DNA of 64,000 bases from Nocardioides sp. (lineage in GTDB: Bacteria > Actinomycetota > Actinomycetes > Propionibacteriales > Nocardioidaceae), in the NCBI RefSeq assembly GCF_041600255.1, contig NZ_JBFIKK010000001.1, forward strand, positions 564-64,563. Reading direction: 5' to 3'. Position 1 is the stretch's first letter. Each line of letters starts with the position of its first letter. The translations under genes were made by a program, and so were the position numbers. Positions 5,544-31,168 of the stretch are shown in pieces. The notes below the pieces were generated by a model. That model searched no databases. It was not told the origin of the DNA and saw only the letters and a program-made list of their open reading frames with translations.

Positions 5544-5906
5544 TCAGCGGACTTCGAGCTGGACGATCGTCCTGGCCGGCGAGTGCGACTCGATGTCGAC
5601 GACGCCAGGGGTCTGGATGGTCAGCTTCAGCGTGGTCGTGCCCGCGCCGTACTCCAGCTGCTGCTCCGGGCTGGAGTGCACGTGCAGCTCGCCCGCGGTG
5701 TCGGACTTCACCACCAGCTCGATCGGCGTGCCGGCCTCGATCTGGACCCGCTCGCCGTTGGGGGTCACGGAGCCGTCGGAGAAGGTGATCTCGATCGTCT
5801 GACGCTCGGGAGGGGCGCTGTCCGATGGTCCTGGGGACTCGCTGCACCCGGTGCTCAGGATGAGGGGGAGGGCGATGATCGCCGCTGCTGCCAGCAGTCG
5901 CCGCAT
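5544..5906 (-). CDS. Lipoprotein with cupredoxin-like fold
   Basis: Signal peptide with lipobox LSTG-C; GELHVH and DIESH motifs; directly upstream of the membrane protein gene (1-bp gap). Confidence 0.75.
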   Translation of the reverse strand: MRRLLAAAAIIALPLILSTGCSESPGPSDSAPPERQTIEITFSDGSVTPNGERVQIEAGTPIELVVKSDTAGELHVHSSPEQQLEYGAGTTTLKLTIQTPGVVDIESHSPARTIVQLEVR

Positions 5907-7983: not shown

Positions 7984-9608
<1,625 letters not shown>

Positions 9609-24857: not shown

Positions 24858-24977
24858 CCCCACTCGCCGCCGCCGTTTGTTACCGCTTTGTGGATTTCAC
24901 GTGGACGGGGTGTGGTCGGCGTCCCACTAGCGTTCTTCCCAAGCCGAAGGCACTCGGTGGCGACACCTTGCACGGCA

Positions 24978-25082
24978 CGATCGACGCGTTCGTCTCTGGG
25001 GGGAGCGGGCGGTCGGTCGGAGGAATCAGAGCGATCCGAACGCATCTGGAGGGAGGCGTTCGGATCGCTCTTCCGTTTTCCT
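24978..25082 (+). other. Two consecutive hairpins with near-identical G-rich apical sequences, followed by a U-rich run, upstream of the response regulator
   Basis: Stem 24978-25019 (with G-U pairs) and perfect 16-bp stem 25028-25043/25056-25071; apical TCTGGGGGGAG and TCTGGAGGGAG; TTCCGTTTTCC follows. Confidence 0.5.
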
Positions 25083-25112
25083 GCTGCACGGCATCGCGAG
25101 AGGAGATCCACC

Positions 25113-25904
25113 ATGGAGTCGACAATGCTGGGCGGCGCCGTGGCTCTCGCGCCGCAGGACCGTGTCGGACATGCCACGGAGGTGGCCGACGAGACCCCTA
25201 TGCTCGACCTCATGGGACAGCGCGTACTCGTGGTCGAGGACGAGGAGGACATCGCCTTCCCCCTCGTGCGGACCCTCGAACGTGAGGGTTACGAGGTCGA
25301 GTGGGTCGACAGCGGCCAGAAGGCTCTCGACTCGCTGAAGGCGCTGCCCGCCTCGCTGATGATCCTGGACCTCGGTCTCCCCGACTTCGACGGTCTCGAG
25401 GTGTGCCGACGTGCCCGCGACAGCGGCTACGAAGGCGCCATCATGATCGTCACCGCCCGTGCCGGCGAGCTCGACCGGGTCGTCGGGCTCGACTACGGCG
25501 CCGACGACTACCTCTCCAAGCCCTTCGGTCTCGCCGAGCTCCAGGCGCGCGTGCGCGCCCTGCTGCGGCGTACGACGGGTGCCGGACCCGCGGCCCCCGA
25601 GAGCTCCGACGGTCTGCGCATCGACGTGGAGTCGCGACGGGTCTGGTCGGGGCAGGCCGAGGTGAACCTGACCGGCAAGGAGTTCGACCTCCTCGCCATC
25701 CTGCTCGCCGACCGCGACAAGGTCGTCTCCCGGGAACGTCTGATGGCCGAGGTCTGGGACGAGCACTGGTTCGGTTCGACGAAGACGCTCGACGTCACGC
25801 TGGGGCGCCTGCGTCACAAGCTCGAGGACGTCGGGGTGAAGGAGCGGATCGTGGCGGTTCGAGGCGTGGGTTTCCGCCTCGAGGGCGACCCCGCCCATGC
25901 GTAA
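25113..25904 (+). CDS. OmpR/PhoB-family response regulator
   Basis: LVVEDE, ILDLGLPD, GADDYLSKPF, LTGKEFDLL, wHTH; AGGAG RBS before ATG 25113. Confidence 0.95.
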   Translation: MESTMLGGAVALAPQDRVGHATEVADETPMLDLMGQRVLVVEDEEDIAFPLVRTLEREGYEVEWVDSGQKALDSLKALPASLMILDLGLPDFDGLEVCRRARDSGYEGAIMIVTARAGELDRVVGLDYGADDYLSKPFGLAELQARVRALLRRTTGAGPAAPESSDGLRIDVESRRVWSGQAEVNLTGKEFDLLAILLADRDKVVSRERLMAEVWDEHWFGSTKTLDVTLGRLRHKLEDVGVKERIVAVRGVGFRLEGDPAHA

Positions 25905-27108
25905 GCGGCTGACCCTGGCCTTCATCGTCCTCACGGTGCTTGCCCTCTTCACCGCCGGGTTCATCCGGACGTTCATCCTGCGCGACCTGATCCGTGAGCA
26001 GGAGGCTGCGCACGTCCGGCAGGAGAGCTCGCTGATCGCGGAGATCGTCGCCGACCGGCAGTCCGGCGGCGGGTCAATCGACAAGAACTTCCTCAAGGGG
26101 CTGGTGGGCCCGGACAGTCGCCTGGTGTTCAAGGCCGACGGCCAGCGCCCGGTCGTCGTCAAGGGCGCCGACTACCGGGGCGTGGACGGCGCCGGCGACC
26201 CGCTCTCCACCACCGTCGAGACGTACGGCGCCACCGTCACCGTCTCCCAGTCCGGCTCGGTCTCCCGGCAGATCCTGATGCGCAACATCGGGTCGATGCT
26301 GCTGGTCTACTTCCTGATCGCGATGCTGGCCGGCGCCATCGGCTACCTGTTGGCGCGCCGGCTCTCGAAGCCGTTCCGGGAGCTGGCCTCTGCGGCCGCC
26401 GCCCTCGGGCGCGGGCGGTTCGACCTGGAGCTGCCGAACAGCCGGATCCCGGAGGCCCGGGCGATCGCCCAGGCGCTGGGCACCAGCGCCGGCCAGCTGG
26501 AGGACCGGCTCCGGCGCGAGCGGGAGTTCGCCGAGCACGCCTCGCACGTCCTGCGCAGCCCGCTGACCGGGTTGCGGCTCGAGCTGGAGGACCTCACGAT
26601 GCGCGGCGACGTGCCCGAGGAGGCGCAGCAGGCTGCGGAGCGGGGGATGGCGACGATCGACGAGATGGACACGGTGGCCGGCGAGCTGGTGGAGATGTCG
26701 CGCAGCGGGATCCTGGTGGCCGGCTCCGAGCTGCCGTTGGTCGAGCTGGCCACCCAGCTCGCCCAGCGCTGGGCGGACCGGCTGGCGTCGCGCAACCGCA
26801 CCCTGACCGCCTCCGCCGAGGGCGATCTGTCGCTCTCCTACACCCCGGGTCCGGTGGAGCACGTCTTCGACCTGGTGATGGCCGAGGTGTTCCGCCGGGG
26901 GACCGGGCCGGTGCACATCGTCTACCGGGGACAGGAGGGCGGGCACCTGCGGATCAAGATCGCGGCGCTGGGGCGCACCTCCGACCTGACCGGGTCCGAG
27001 CCGGAGACCCGGCTGCAACAGGCTCGCGCCGTGGTCGAGGCGCTCGGTGGCCGGATCAACGGCCACGACCCTGCGCACGGCCTGGAACTCCTGCTGCCGC
27101 GTCGTTGA
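25897..27108 (+). CDS. Membrane sensor histidine kinase-like protein (HAMP + HisKA, degenerate ATPase domain)
   Basis: Two TMs, HAMP, ASHVLRSPLT H-box; no recognisable N, G1 or G2 boxes. Confidence 0.85.
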   Translation: MRKRLTLAFIVLTVLALFTAGFIRTFILRDLIREQEAAHVRQESSLIAEIVADRQSGGGSIDKNFLKGLVGPDSRLVFKADGQRPVVVKGADYRGVDGAGDPLSTTVETYGATVTVSQSGSVSRQILMRNIGSMLLVYFLIAMLAGAIGYLLARRLSKPFRELASAAAALGRGRFDLELPNSRIPEARAIAQALGTSAGQLEDRLRREREFAEHASHVLRSPLTGLRLELEDLTMRGDVPEEAQQAAERGMATIDEMDTVAGELVEMSRSGILVAGSELPLVELATQLAQRWADRLASRNRTLTASAEGDLSLSYTPGPVEHVFDLVMAEVFRRGTGPVHIVYRGQEGGHLRIKIAALGRTSDLTGSEPETRLQQARAVVEALGGRINGHDPAHGLELLLPRR

Positions 27109-27928: not shown

Positions 27929-27979
27929 ACCCCGCTCGAGCACGCGCCCGAGGCTCCTTGAATCTTCACCGACCAGGGG

Positions 27980-28007
27980 TCAAGGTCGGCTCCTGGGCCA
28001 CCGATGT
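27980..28007 (+). promoter_or_regulatory. Putative sigma28 (FliA/WhiG)-type promoter TCAAG-N15-ACCGATGT
   Basis: Both boxes and the 15-nt spacing recur exactly at 28249; resembles the TAAA(G)-N15-GCCGATAA class. Confidence 0.55.
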
Positions 28008-28063
28008 GTCCGGTGGAGGGAGGCAGTCGATGCCTCCGGCGGAACAGGTTCTGGGAGGTCCTG

Positions 28064-28219
28064 ATGACGCAGGCACAGTTGCTCGACATGCTCGATCTGG
28101 TCGCGATGAGTCTCTGCTCCTCGTGTGGCGAGGCCGTCGGCCAGTTCCGTGGAGATCCGTCGCTGTGGGTGCACCTGCCCAGCGACGACGGCTCCTGGCT
28201 CGGGCCGATCCGGGACTGA
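28064..28219 (+). CDS. 51-aa CxxC...WxH microprotein, copy 1
   Basis: MTQAQLLDMLDLVAMSLCSSCGEAVGQFRGDPSLWVHLPSDDGSWLGPIRD; GGGAGG RBS; paralogous to 28338-28511. Confidence 0.75.
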   Translation: MTQAQLLDMLDLVAMSLCSSCGEAVGQFRGDPSLWVHLPSDDGSWLGPIRD

Positions 28220-28248
28220 TCGCCGTGACCACCTTTTTACTTTCAGAT

Positions 28249-28276
28249 TCAAGGTCTTCGGGCTGGGGACCGATGA
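28249..28276 (+). promoter_or_regulatory. Putative sigma28 (FliA/WhiG)-type promoter TCAAG-N15-ACCGATGA
   Basis: Second copy, identical boxes and spacing, 62 nt upstream of microprotein 2. Confidence 0.55.
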
Positions 28277-28337
28277 ACAGGGTGAGCGGGGAGCACACCA
28301 GCACCCCACCGGGAGCCATGTCCGTAGGGGAGTCCTG

Positions 28338-28511
28338 ATGACTCAGGAGAAGCTTGTCGAACTGCTTGATCTGACCCAGGTCAGCGTCTGCGCCGTCTGC
28401 GGCCAGGCGGTCGCCCAGTCCAAGCGTGACGAGACCGTGTGGCTGCACATCCCGAACGGCGGCTGCGAGTGGCTGTTCCCGCCGCACCGGGGTGTGCGCG
28501 AGCGTCACTGA
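28338..28511 (+). CDS. 57-aa CxxC...WxH microprotein, copy 2
   Basis: MTQEKLVELLDLTQVSVCAVCGQAVAQSKRDETVWLHIPNGGCEWLFPPHRGVRERH; GGGGAG RBS; 21 of 48 aligned residues identical to copy 1 without gaps. Confidence 0.75.
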   Translation: MTQEKLVELLDLTQVSVCAVCGQAVAQSKRDETVWLHIPNGGCEWLFPPHRGVRERH

Positions 28512-28518
28512 CGCCCCC

Positions 28519-28569
28519 GCGACGTGACAGCGACGTCCTCGCGACGCGCTGACGACGGCCCCTCGACAG
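28519..28569 (+). promoter_or_regulatory. Five heptamer direct repeats at 11-bp period (putative SARP operator)
   Basis: GCGACGT-N4-GCGACGT-N4-GCGACGC-N4-ACGACGG-N4-TCGACAG; CGAC cores at 28520, 28531, 28542, 28553, 28564. Confidence 0.7.
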
Positions 28570-28634
28570 TCGTCCTGCTTTCTTCGGAGTGACCGTGCGC
28601 ATGGGATGCGCGGCGCAACGAAGGGAGCATCGAC

Positions 28635-29795
28635 ATGTCCGATCCAGGCTCGAAGGGTGACTTCGCCACTCCGTCGGGCGACGCCGCGCAGTCCGACGAA
28701 ACGGCCGGCACCGCGTTCTCGACGCCGCCCGACTCGTCCAGCGCCGCCGAGCAGGCGGCCTTCACGCTCGACGCCCAGTCGATGGGCGGGGTGAGCACCC
28801 AGCTCCTCGACACGCACGCCGCCCTCGAGGACGCCCTGCACCGTCAGGAACGCTCGACGAAGGGCGCCCACAGCATCGAGTCGCTCAGCGACCTCGGCGG
28901 CATGGCCAACGTCCAAGGTGTGGCCATCGGGCTCGGTTCGCCCGGCGACGGCCCTCCCGGCGAGCCGACGCTGAACGTCTACGTCGCCGAGCGGACCTCG
29001 GTCGAGCGGGTGCGCGAGGTGGTGGTCGACGGCCTCGGCGTCCAGTCCGCGGGCGACATCAAGATGACGGTCCGGCGCTCCGGCCAGTTCGACGCCCAGC
29101 CGCACCGGTTCCGGATCCGACCGGCTCCCGGCGGAGTCTCTGTCGGGCACGTCAAGGTGACCGCGGGGACGCTCGGCTGCCTCAGCATCGGACGCAGCTC
29201 GCCGCGCAACTCGCGACTGTTGATGCTGTCCAACAACCACGTCCTGGCGAACTCCAACAACGCCGTGTACGGCGACAGCATCATCCAGCCCGGTCGCTAC
29301 GACGGTGGTTCGCACCCCGGCGACCAGGTGGCGATCCTGGAGCGATTCGTGCCCATCCAGTTCGGCGGCGGCACCAACTACGTGGACGCCGCCACCGGGT
29401 GGTGCTGGCCCGACCGGGTACGCCGCGAGCTGATCTACCCCTACGGCAGCGGGTTCGCGTTGTACCGGATCGGCAGTAACCCGGTCTACCCGCAGCTCGG
29501 CTGGCTGGTCGGGAAGTCGGGTCGGACCACCCAGCTGACCCAGGGCCGCATCGTGTCGGTGAACTGGTCCGGTTGGGTCAACTACGGGGTCGGGTACGGC
29601 TGGTTCGTCGGCCAGATGGTCGTGCAGGGCGGCAGCGGCGACTTCTCGGCAGGCGGTGACTCGGGTTCGGTGATCTGGAAGTGGGAGTCCGGGCTGCCTC
29701 CCACGGGCTTGCTCTTTGCCGGCGGTGGTGGCTACACGATCGCCAGCCCGATGCCGTGGGTGACCTATCTGCTCGACATCAACCTCTACACCTGA
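28635..29795 (+). CDS. Cytoplasmic trypsin-fold (S1, NAL1-like) serine protease with N-terminal regulatory domain
   Basis: GGVSVGH..TAGTLGC, LSNNHVL (His), YVDAA (Asp), GGDSGS (Ser), GKSGRTT, GLLFAG; no signal peptide; AAGGGAG RBS. Confidence 0.88.
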   Translation: MSDPGSKGDFATPSGDAAQSDETAGTAFSTPPDSSSAAEQAAFTLDAQSMGGVSTQLLDTHAALEDALHRQERSTKGAHSIESLSDLGGMANVQGVAIGLGSPGDGPPGEPTLNVYVAERTSVERVREVVVDGLGVQSAGDIKMTVRRSGQFDAQPHRFRIRPAPGGVSVGHVKVTAGTLGCLSIGRSSPRNSRLLMLSNNHVLANSNNAVYGDSIIQPGRYDGGSHPGDQVAILERFVPIQFGGGTNYVDAATGWCWPDRVRRELIYPYGSGFALYRIGSNPVYPQLGWLVGKSGRTTQLTQGRIVSVNWSGWVNYGVGYGWFVGQMVVQGGSGDFSAGGDSGSVIWKWESGLPPTGLLFAGGGGYTIASPMPWVTYLLDINLYT

Positions 29796-29904
29796 GGCGG
29801 TGCGCACCGTGCTCGTCCGGGCGGCAACCCAGGCTTGGTCCGCCCGGTCGGCGCTAGCATCGAACCGGGCTTGCTTGTCCACGGCCGCAGGGAGGTGATG
29901 GTCC

Positions 29905-30237
29905 GTGACGGACTTCGAGGATCCGCTCCAGGGTGGCGAGGACGCTGCCCTTCCGCACCGCCCACCGCCGTCTGGTGCCGCGTCCGCCGAGGATGAGCTC
30001 CTCGAGCGTCACCGGGCGGACCTGCTCACCGTGCCCGGCGTGACGGCCGTATGGTCCGGGCTGACCTCGACGGGGGCGGTTGCCGTCTTCGTCGGCGTCA
30101 CGGATCCGTCGGCACGCGACCGGCTGCCCCGCTCGCTGGAGGGCCTGCCGGTGGAGGTGGTCGACGTGCCCGGCGGGTTCGTCGCCCTGGCCGACGGTGA
30201 CCGGCCCGCCGAGCCACCCCCGTCGGAGTGTCAATAG
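29905..30237 (+). CDS. Small protein resembling a stand-alone NAL1-type protease N-terminal domain
   Basis: LLTVPGVTAVWSG...AVFVGV...LPRSLEGLPVEVVDVPGGFVAL; GGGAGG RBS. Confidence 0.7.
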   Translation: MTDFEDPLQGGEDAALPHRPPPSGAASAEDELLERHRADLLTVPGVTAVWSGLTSTGAVAVFVGVTDPSARDRLPRSLEGLPVEVVDVPGGFVALADGDRPAEPPPSECQ

Positions 30238-30349
30238 CGTGGATGCGCCATGGACGGAGGCGCCCCCGTTCGTCAGGATGAGGTGCAGCGCCGTCCAATG
30301 CTCGTGACTCGGATGCGGGCCGGAGGCGGCGCGGACGGGGGCAGTCCCG

Positions 30350-31168
30350 ATGGTCTCGCCCGGGGGCGCAGACACGTCGATCTCCGTGCTCGGCGGGTTC
30401 GACGTGCTCTCAAGGGGAGAGCGGCTGAACCTACCGGAGGCCGTGCAGCGCATGCTGGGCTTCCTGGCCGTGACCGGGAAGCGGCAGTGCCGCAGCACGG
30501 TGGCGGGCCGGTTGTGGCCGCTCATCGGTGAGGCGCGCGCGCAGGGCAACCTGCGCACCGCGCTCTGGCAGCTCCGGCGGACCGATCTCGACGTGGTCCG
30601 CGCCGTCCGGGACCAGCTCTGGCTCAGCGAGGACGTGGCGCTGGACTTCCGCGCGATGACCGAGCAGGCCTGGGGCGTGCTGAGTGGGGACCTCAGCGCG
30701 ACCGACGTTCTCGGCCTCTCGCTGCCGCTGTTCCAGGCGGATCTGCTGCCGGACTGGGACGAGGACTGGCTGCTGATCGAACGCGAACGACACCGCCAGC
30801 TGCGCCTGCACGCGCTGGAGGCCGTCAGCCACCGCCTGGTTGAGCTCGGACGACACGCCCTGGCAGCCGAGGCGGCGTACGCCGCGATCACGGTCGAGCC
30901 GCTGTGCGAGTCGGCCCACCGGACGCTGGCGCAGGTGTTCCTGGCCGAGGGCAATCCGACCGAGGCGCTGCGGCAGTTCGAGCTCTACCGCGCACTGTTG
31001 GACGACGAGACCGGGTACGGCCCGACCGACGCGTTCGTCGCGTTGATCACTGCGCCCAGGCGGCCCCGCGGGACCGAGGTCAGGCTGATGAGCTCCGGCC
31101 GCTGGCGGCCGCGGGACGCCGGCGGGCCGACCGGGGGTCGCCAGGTGACGAAGCCCGGCGGGCCGTGA
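30350..31168 (+). CDS. Small SARP/AfsR-family activator (wHTH + BTAD)
   Basis: ISVLGGF, AGRLWP...GNLRTALWQLRR, DLLPDWDEDWLLIERER, EPLCESAHRTL, GNPTEALRQF. Confidence 0.92.
   Translation: MVSPGGADTSISVLGGFDVLSRGERLNLPEAVQRMLGFLAVTGKRQCRSTVAGRLWPLIGEARAQGNLRTALWQLRRTDLDVVRAVRDQLWLSEDVALDFRAMTEQAWGVLSGDLSATDVLGLSLPLFQADLLPDWDEDWLLIERERHRQLRLHALEAVSHRLVELGRHALAAEAAYAAITVEPLCESAHRTLAQVFLAEGNPTEALRQFELYRALLDDETGYGPTDAFVALITAPRRPRGTEVRLMSSGRWRPRDAGGPTGGRQVTKPGGP

Follow-up and report, generated by a model that had tools for sequence, protein, structure and literature searches.

Introduction

Small SARPs such as ActII-ORF4, DnrI and RedD recognize TCGAG-type heptamer repeats, usually two to three copies of TCGAGxx, in antibiotic biosynthetic clusters. 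Phased direct repeats of 11 bp are also bound by OmpR/PhoB regulators, an example being the PHO boxes of PhoP/PhoB-type proteins, which consist of variable numbers of 11-nt direct-repeat units arranged as core plus extension.

According to the published rule for SARP targets, the direct repeats have a spacing of 11 or 22 bp, and 8 bp separate the 3'-most one from the −10 element (PMC10936776). The box seen in the AfsR complex overlaps the −35 element and spacer, and the first 8 bp of every 11-bp repeat are contacted by one protomer (PMC10936776). The 'shell' genes listed for extracellular contractile injection system (eCIS) loci also include regulators with a BTAD domain (Geller et al. 2021, PMC8213781).

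Here we analyze a phased repeat array in a 64-kb window, the whole stretch of Nocardioides sp. DNA under study, together with the genes around it (Table 1). Comparison of sequences suggests that this array is probably the activating operator of a promoter serving a protease operon, which consists of the protease gene and the gene of a 110-aa partner, and that it is bound by the SARP encoded at 30350-31168.

Table 1. Features of the array, the predicted promoter and the neighboring genes (positions in the window)
Feature	Position	Strand	Basis or remark
57-aa ORF with CxxC...C...H	28338..28511	+	GC1/2/3 0.71/0.43/0.84, coding-like
Six-unit direct-repeat array, period 11 bp, candidate SARP operator	28509..28574	+	Read from sequence
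Unit 1, TGACGcccccg	from 28509	+	
Unit 2, CGACGtgacag	from 28520	+	
Unit 3, CGACGtcctcg	from 28531	+	
Unit 4, CGACGcgctga	from 28542	+	
Unit 5, CGACGgcccct	from 28553	+	
Unit 6, CGACAgtcgtc	from 28564	+	
Candidate extended −10: TG (28576-77), c, TTTCTT (28579-84)	28576..28584	+	Position
Inverted repeat GCGCAT-ggg-ATGCGC in presumed 5' leader	28597..28611	+	Read from sequence; weak evidence
Shine-Dalgarno GGGAG of protease gene	28623-28627	+	
Predicted target gene: NAL1-like chymotrypsin-fold serine protease, 386 aa	28635..29795	+	Motifs, family profile
110-aa ORF, co-conserved protease partner	29905..30237	+	tblastn; GC3 0.85
Small SARP-family regulator, 272 aa, OmpR-type wHTH + BTAD	30350..31168	+	Candidate array binder; Pfam, profile, AF2 model

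Extent and significance of the repeat array

Read directly from the forward strand, CGAC starts at 28520, 28531, 28542, 28553 and 28564 in exact 11-bp steps, in agreement with the preliminary description, which also gave the correct distance of 65 nt between the array and the protease ATG (the last heptamer ends at 28570 and the ATG is at 28635). Its account of five heptamers with 4-nt spacers has to be amended in unit size and in number: the repeat stands, but the conserved part of each unit is a 5-nt core (5 of 11 positions), and a sixth unit with TGACG lies in phase at 28509, so that the array extends over 28509-28574 and comprises 6 x 11 bp (66 bp). The cores follow the pattern YGACR, with TGACG at 28509, CGACG at 28520, 28531, 28542 and 28553, and CGACA at 28564; GACG forms an in-phase run of five beginning at 28510. 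Unit 1 overlaps the TGA stop codon of the 57-aa ORF.

The array is genuine and not random. No other place in the 64-kb window has a run of at least four exact copies of a 4-mer with period 10 or 11, the period-9 and period-12 runs there being codon-phased, and no further three-unit array was found elsewhere in the window when one mismatch was allowed. CGAC is a common word (the sixth commonest 4-mer in the window), and in a genome of 71% G+C the array might have arisen by chance or through base composition; extrapolated to a genome of 8-10 Mb, the per-window figure comes to about 0.1 such runs per period. The per-window figure is, however, an analytic expectation of only 9e-4 per period per window for a run of any 4-mer; none of 300 third-order Markov simulations contained a five-run at period 10 or 11, the sixth unit falls in phase, and the pattern recurs at two related protease loci (L081 and L044). 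Chance is effectively refuted because in a third locus, L082, the cores are perfectly conserved while the spacers have diverged, and we regard it as a negligible explanation.

The regulator encoded at 30350-31168

The preliminary description took the product of 30350-31168 for a SARP, and the domain evidence bears this out. The protein has a Pfam BTAD domain at residues 117-232 (E=1.9e-15; score 58 bits, cut-off 22.1) and no match to Pfam Trans_reg_C. A phmmer search of the PDB with the single sequence gave no match, a profile being required: the profile of the subfamily (34 homologs) matched the SARP domain of AfsR (8hvr_I) with E=1.2e-12 over residues 8-237. The AF2 model (pLDDT 90) has TM scores of 0.66-0.72 to AfsR in transcription initiation complexes and was matched to EmbR by Foldseek with E=4e-7 to 8e-7; the superposition covers 237-239 columns with AfsR and 244-245 with EmbR, the N-terminal domain included. 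An OmpR-type winged-helix domain contiguous with the BTAD domain is therefore recognized through the profile and the superposition despite the missing Trans_reg_C match, and the product is a genuine small SARP.

The sequence upstream of the SARP gene itself (30226-30290 in the window, 2040-2100 in L082) retains TCAATAGC...CCAT(A/G)GACG...ATGAGGT in both. In the protease-less orthologs (L167:4885-4950, L168 and L170) the SARP gene is preceded by TGACG-N6-AGACG and then cacnATAGnA. The motif before the SARP gene may be an autoregulatory half-site.

The protease cassette and its surroundings

The gene behind the array does encode a protease, as the preliminary description had it, and its product can be assigned to the NAL1-like, chymotrypsin-fold serine proteases: the catalytic His lies in LSNNHV and the Ser in GDSGS, and the family profile matches rice NARROW LEAF 1 (E=2e-5) and Streptomyces griseus proteases. 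Homologs of the partner ORF were found by tblastn directly 3' of the protease gene in 34 of 80 loci from several phyla. The protease family is scattered over Actinobacteria, Proteobacteria, Cyanobacteria, Acidobacteria and others. Together the protease and a partner of ~100-140 aa form a two-gene cassette, patchy across at least five phyla (28635-30237 in the window; L001-L086) and frequently with transposase or toxin-antitoxin genes close by (L085, L086 and L077). No signal peptide was found in the cassette, and PADLOC and NCBIfam scans of the protease, the partner, the SARP and the 57-aa ORF gave no defense system and no named family.

The window is chromosome-like actinobacterial DNA of marine-metagenome origin. 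Genes for HtrA, WS/DGAT, aldehyde dehydrogenase, NAD-GDH, amidase, SDR, Ku, LigD, an OmpR-type response regulator and histidine kinase pair and a HAD hydrolase precede the array in this order, and the SARP gene is followed by TadA/TadB/TadC-like genes and, further on, by FtsE/FtsX, an M23 peptidase and SmpB. Between the HAD hydrolase gene and the 57-aa ORF lie ~410 bp of non-coding DNA with lower G+C (27929-28337). The 57-aa ORF has no family matches and no homolog at any related locus, and is probably a neighbor outside the protease module.

A 553-nt estuary-metagenome contig (run X5) agrees with the window as far as 28514, right where the array begins, and then continues into unrelated sequence. 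The 30-nt continuation is absent from the window, and no clean insertion boundary is demonstrable. This divergence and the upstream non-coding tract of lower G+C hint that the array, protease, partner and SARP gene form an inserted module. Population variants in metagenome runs X2-X5 were considered as additional footprints and dropped as too noisy.

Conservation of the array at protease loci

The closest locus, L082, has the same gene order as the window, with a protease 90% and a SARP 67% identical, and carries six units. Between the two loci the cores are identical at 30 of 30 positions and the spacers at 21 of 36 (Fisher p=4e-5), and third codon positions of the protease gene are 72% identical; judged from these substitutions, the array is under selection. 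At L081 (protease 83%, SARP 42% identical) the SARP gene lies upstream, not downstream, and six units are kept with a spacing of 11-12 bp. The SARP gene of L044 (Streptomyces sp. NBC_00090), whose product is 42% identical, comes after the protease gene.

Arrays of at least three units stand upstream of the protease gene in four of the five loci with a SARP homolog (the window, L082, L081 and L044), compared with one of the 81 protease loci without one (L077; p≈1e-5). The two departures are L001, which has a SARP homolog yet only two TAACG units, and L077, where the array is present and no SARP is encoded within 13 kb. On this distribution, phased (C/T)GACG arrays track the SARP homolog and not the protease as such. 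The preliminary description named absence of the array upstream of orthologous protease genes as a refutation; the array is present there, with conserved cores, in L082 and L081, and this comparison therefore does not refute an operator.

L044 contains three arrays of three TGACG units (5787-5819, 8209-8241 and 9428-9460), located before the protease gene, a ferritin-like gene (PF12902) and an Amidase_2 gene. Each is followed 3 nt later by TAGGCT, TACCTT or TAGCGT. Grouped around one SARP gene, these arrays would make up a compact predicted regulon.

Other protease loci have different upstream arrangements. In L171 (protease 70% identical, no SARP) the upstream region contains four copies of ATCTGACTC with an 18-bp period (~1090-1165), and in L083 (Cellulomonas cellasea) the protease gene and a gene for a GerE-type regulator point away from each other. 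The protease cassette seems to have been rewired to different regulators by lineage.

Arrays at other loci of the SARP subfamily

An independent set of 80 loci (L087-L166, 339 kb) was obtained by scanning metagenomes with the SARP alignment, the loci being chosen only by homology to the subfamily (40-51% identity). A strict search for three (C/T)GAC(G/A) units at period 11 gave 31 hits in 26 of these loci, compared with zero to four at other periods from 8 to 14, and the same search of the 81 protease-only loci (898 kb) gave two hits (p=2e-7). When 5-mers with at least three copies at period 11 were counted de novo, only TGACG (20 loci) and GTGAC (19 loci) recurred; no 5-mer array was recurrent in the 80 loci at period 10. 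A hexamer of the form nAnnnT follows the third unit by 3-4 nt in 34 of 38 non-identical arrays, the rate at every other offset being at most 5%. This geometry of the subfamily arrays agrees with the rule for SARP targets given in PMC10936776. The consensus of the subfamily is GTGACG, from which the CGACG cores of the window differ.

It is also conceivable that the array is read by some other direct-repeat binder, with the SARP as a mere neighbor. The candidates are the OmpR/PhoB-type response regulator (24888-25904) with its kinase (25897-27108), whose genes lie 2.6 kb upstream of the array and whose relatives bind repeats of the same 11-bp phase, or another factor. The array without a nearby SARP in L077 would speak for a different binder. 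The response regulator is disfavored because neither L081 nor L044 has the pair, and among the SARP loci with arrays a single one does; array-bearing loci have no regulator in common except the SARP, and de novo recurrence of the motif is tied to loci of the SARP subfamily. Another co-inherited binder is conceivable, since possession of the SARP was the criterion by which the SARP loci were chosen. Taking these points together, we consider a binder other than the SARP unlikely.

In the subfamily, arrays precede not only the SARP gene itself but also divergent and downstream genes. They belong to soil-metagenome small SARPs and comprise three to four copies of GTGACG-N5 in exact 11-bp phase adjoining the SARP gene, for example L092:2317-2343 and 2586-2612, L095:3884-3910, and L098:3048 and 5823. 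The genes behind them encode the SARP, tail-sheath-like proteins (TYPGVYIEEIPSG...) and proteins of 56-77 aa. ORFs with a contractile tail-sheath N-terminus (TYPGVYIEEIPSGV...) begin ~30-75 nt after arrays in L092, L093, L134, L161 and L091, which suggests that this SARP subfamily may drive contractile-injection-system operons. In our literature search we found no description of an operator for eCIS BTAD regulators, and nothing relevant on a GTGACG SARP box or a SARP-eCIS operator. The window itself has no sheath genes and no homologs of the L167 operon. The 56-77-aa family has a 'VVRAW...R.RI' motif and adjoins these SARP genes, often directly behind an array (L097:~1267-1494, L119, L157, L159, L168:4582-4812(-) and L170:4595-4828(-)). 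Against expectation, no array of at least three units was found at L167, L168 and L170, which hold the closest SARP orthologs unlinked to a protease (59-64% identity).

The recognition helix of the window SARP carries the motif LRTALWQ (Q74 = 30569-30571), as do those of L082 and the closest orthologs. Nearly all GTGACG-type members of the subfamily have LW(R/K) at this place, and the residue equivalent to Q74 in AfsR is R92, which contacts a base. Whether CGACG or TGACG is recognized may depend on residue 74. L081 is not a neat fit to this idea, having LWR and mixed C/T cores.

Phased arrays in viral contigs

At least 117 loci in viral contigs contain four phased YGACG units and have no SARP or protease homolog, and the bare phased pattern is therefore not specific to SARPs. 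The viral arrays were rejected as relatives of the array in the window. These contigs (L174-L290; e.g., L175, L177, L181, L188, L200, L252 and L256) have 4-8 phased 11-bp units; a recurrent type of high G+C consists of repeated CCGACGCAnnnn followed by CAAAGAAGAA, and in other types TTGACGATnnn or TCGACGAnnnn is followed by runs of GGAAGGGAAAGG. Given the lack of both homologs, other proteins probably use these arrays as operators or iterons.

The frequency of 11-bp phased (C/T)GACG arrays in viral contigs without SARPs raises the question of whether the array in the window could stem from a phage or mobile element, as a repeat of the iteron or centromere type that serves replication, partition or packaging and has no part in transcribing the protease gene. 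The protease cassette looks mobile in its patchiness across phyla, and the X5 contig diverges exactly at 28514, both of which would suit such an origin. Viral arrays are, however, mostly perfect tandem 11-mers, whereas the array here keeps only its 5-nt cores; it has no Rep, Par or phage gene within ±5 kb, as an assignment to iterons or parC would call for, and in all related loci the arrays are oriented and spaced relative to the downstream gene. An iteron-like origin therefore seems very improbable to us.

Predicted promoter geometry and proposed mechanism

The distance from the end of heptamer 6 (28564-28570) to TTTCTT (28579-28584) is exactly 8 bp, and the six units have the 11-bp period of SARP boxes. 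The candidate extended −10 of the window, TGcTTTCTT, has the counterparts TGgTTTCGT in L082 and TGcTTGATT in L081. The hexamers of these three loci are without the near-invariant A at position 2, in which only L095 and L112 resemble them among the 38 subfamily arrays. A consensus scan of the region gave no sigma-70 −35/−10 pair and no terminator; the absence of such a pair is as expected for an activator-dependent promoter. The predicted transcription start site is at ~28590-28592, which would give a leader of ~45 nt with a short hairpin and the Shine-Dalgarno sequence. A look through RNA-seq runs turned up none that contains the sequence of the window or of the L044 locus.

Hairpins of differing sequence occupy the same place in the leaders of L082, L081, L085, L086 and L001. 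The leader hairpin had no alifold consensus and no energy excess (z=0.21). TTCTTCG (28580-86), which overlaps the −10-like hexamer, can pair with CGAAGGG in the Shine-Dalgarno region (28619-25; MFE −22.8 kcal/mol), enclosing the GCGCAT/ATGCGC hairpin.

The SARP might bind the array in a role other than that of a plain activator, with the array serving as a repressing or roadblock site against read-through, or with the promoter lying elsewhere. The hexamer at the −10 position is a poor one, read-through from the 28338-28511 ORF is possible because the array abuts its stop codon, and the MFE fold includes the TTCTTCG pairing with the Shine-Dalgarno region, which would require a start site upstream of 28580. 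Against such a role, the spacing between array and hexamer is kept in 34 of 38 subfamily arrays and the combination of TGn with a T-rich hexamer in L082 and L081, while the upstream 57-aa ORF is not conserved together with the array and the anti-Shine-Dalgarno pairing is not kept in L081. That the characterized SARPs are activators (PMC10936776) also counts against it. A role other than activation is in our judgment as improbable as a different binder.

The proposal of the preliminary description that the array is the operator of the SARP at 30350 is strengthened by comparative genomics (conservation, co-occurrence of array and SARP, and promoter geometry), with the motif and copy number changed as described above. 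We infer binding, activation rather than repression, the start site and the role of the extra units; the operator inference is supported because the array is conserved, the regulator has the SARP fold, arrays and SARPs co-occur, and the spacing from array to hexamer is fixed in the subfamily.

In a model drawn from the AfsR-afsS complex, one SARP protomer would occupy each 11-bp unit, and adjacent protomers would line up along a single face of the helix. The protomers on units 5 and 6 (~−41 to −19 from the predicted start site) would replace the missing −35, as in the afs box, and could dock sigma region 4 and the RNAP core ('sigma adaptation'). Such docking would let RNAP use the weak extended −10 TGcTTTCTT (28576-28584). 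Units 1-4 may be extension sites that take up more protomers, for higher occupancy or contact with the alpha-CTD. The earlier suggestion that five copies bring about cooperative, switch-like activation is speculation.

Implications

The locus offers a concrete predicted triplet of regulator, operator and target, through which SARP control would extend beyond antibiotic clusters to a NAL1-like protease cassette. With the subfamily box (three to four copies of GTGACG-N5 and a −10 hexamer 3-4 nt on), regulons of small SARPs should become predictable from sequence, including some contractile-injection-system operons that were known before only by a nearby BTAD gene. The length of six units would also make this a natural system for SARP polymerization on DNA beyond the dimer of the AfsR structure.

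It is possible, if doubtful as a whole, that these observations join into a single reading. The array would then be the longest known contiguous SARP operator (six sites, ~−84 to −19), and the regulator would represent an uncharacterized, widespread small-SARP subfamily whose (G)(T/C)GACG-N5 boxes serve non-antibiotic cassettes, namely NAL1-like proteases, contractile-injection-system sheath operons, cell-wall amidases and small 'VVRAW' proteins. Protease, partner, SARP and operator would travel as a self-contained mobile module with regulation of its own, and the exchange of R for Q at Q74 would retune recognition from TGACG to CGACG.

Comparison with known systems

The closest described counterpart is AfsR on the afs box of the afsS promoter (Streptomyces coelicolor; PDB 8HVR, 8K60; PMC10936776), with which the regulator shares the wHTH + BTAD fold. 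The afs box resembles the array in its 11-bp direct repeats (~8 conserved and 3 free positions), with the proximal repeat a few bp before a weak −10, a putative one in the window, and no usable −35. AfsR, however, is a large SARP with NOD and TPR domains that binds two repeats of unlike sequence, whereas the window has a small SARP of 272 aa (~23% identity), six contiguous repeats with a (C/T)GACG core, and a protease as target.

ActII-ORF4, DnrI and RedD are similar in being small SARPs of ~270 aa with heptamer-like repeats in 11-bp phase and a regulator gene adjoining the targets; their repeats overlap the −35, with 8 bp between the 3' repeat and the −10, an arrangement that is predicted for the window as well. 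The window differs from them in having no biosynthetic cluster, another core and six repeats, and in coming from an uncultured marine actinobacterium. The eCIS loci have members of the same SARP subfamily (40-51% identical) beside tail-sheath-like genes preceded by three copies of GTGACG; the window differs in having no sheath gene. PHO boxes share with the array an OmpR-type wHTH reader and a variable number of 11-bp units. PhoP and PhoB, in contrast, have a receiver domain, are phosphorylated and read another motif, and no association of the array here with a response regulator was found.

Set against these systems, the sequence evidence gives good support to a known kind of switch, with no new mechanism; what would be new is the longer array, the core motif and the non-antibiotic target.
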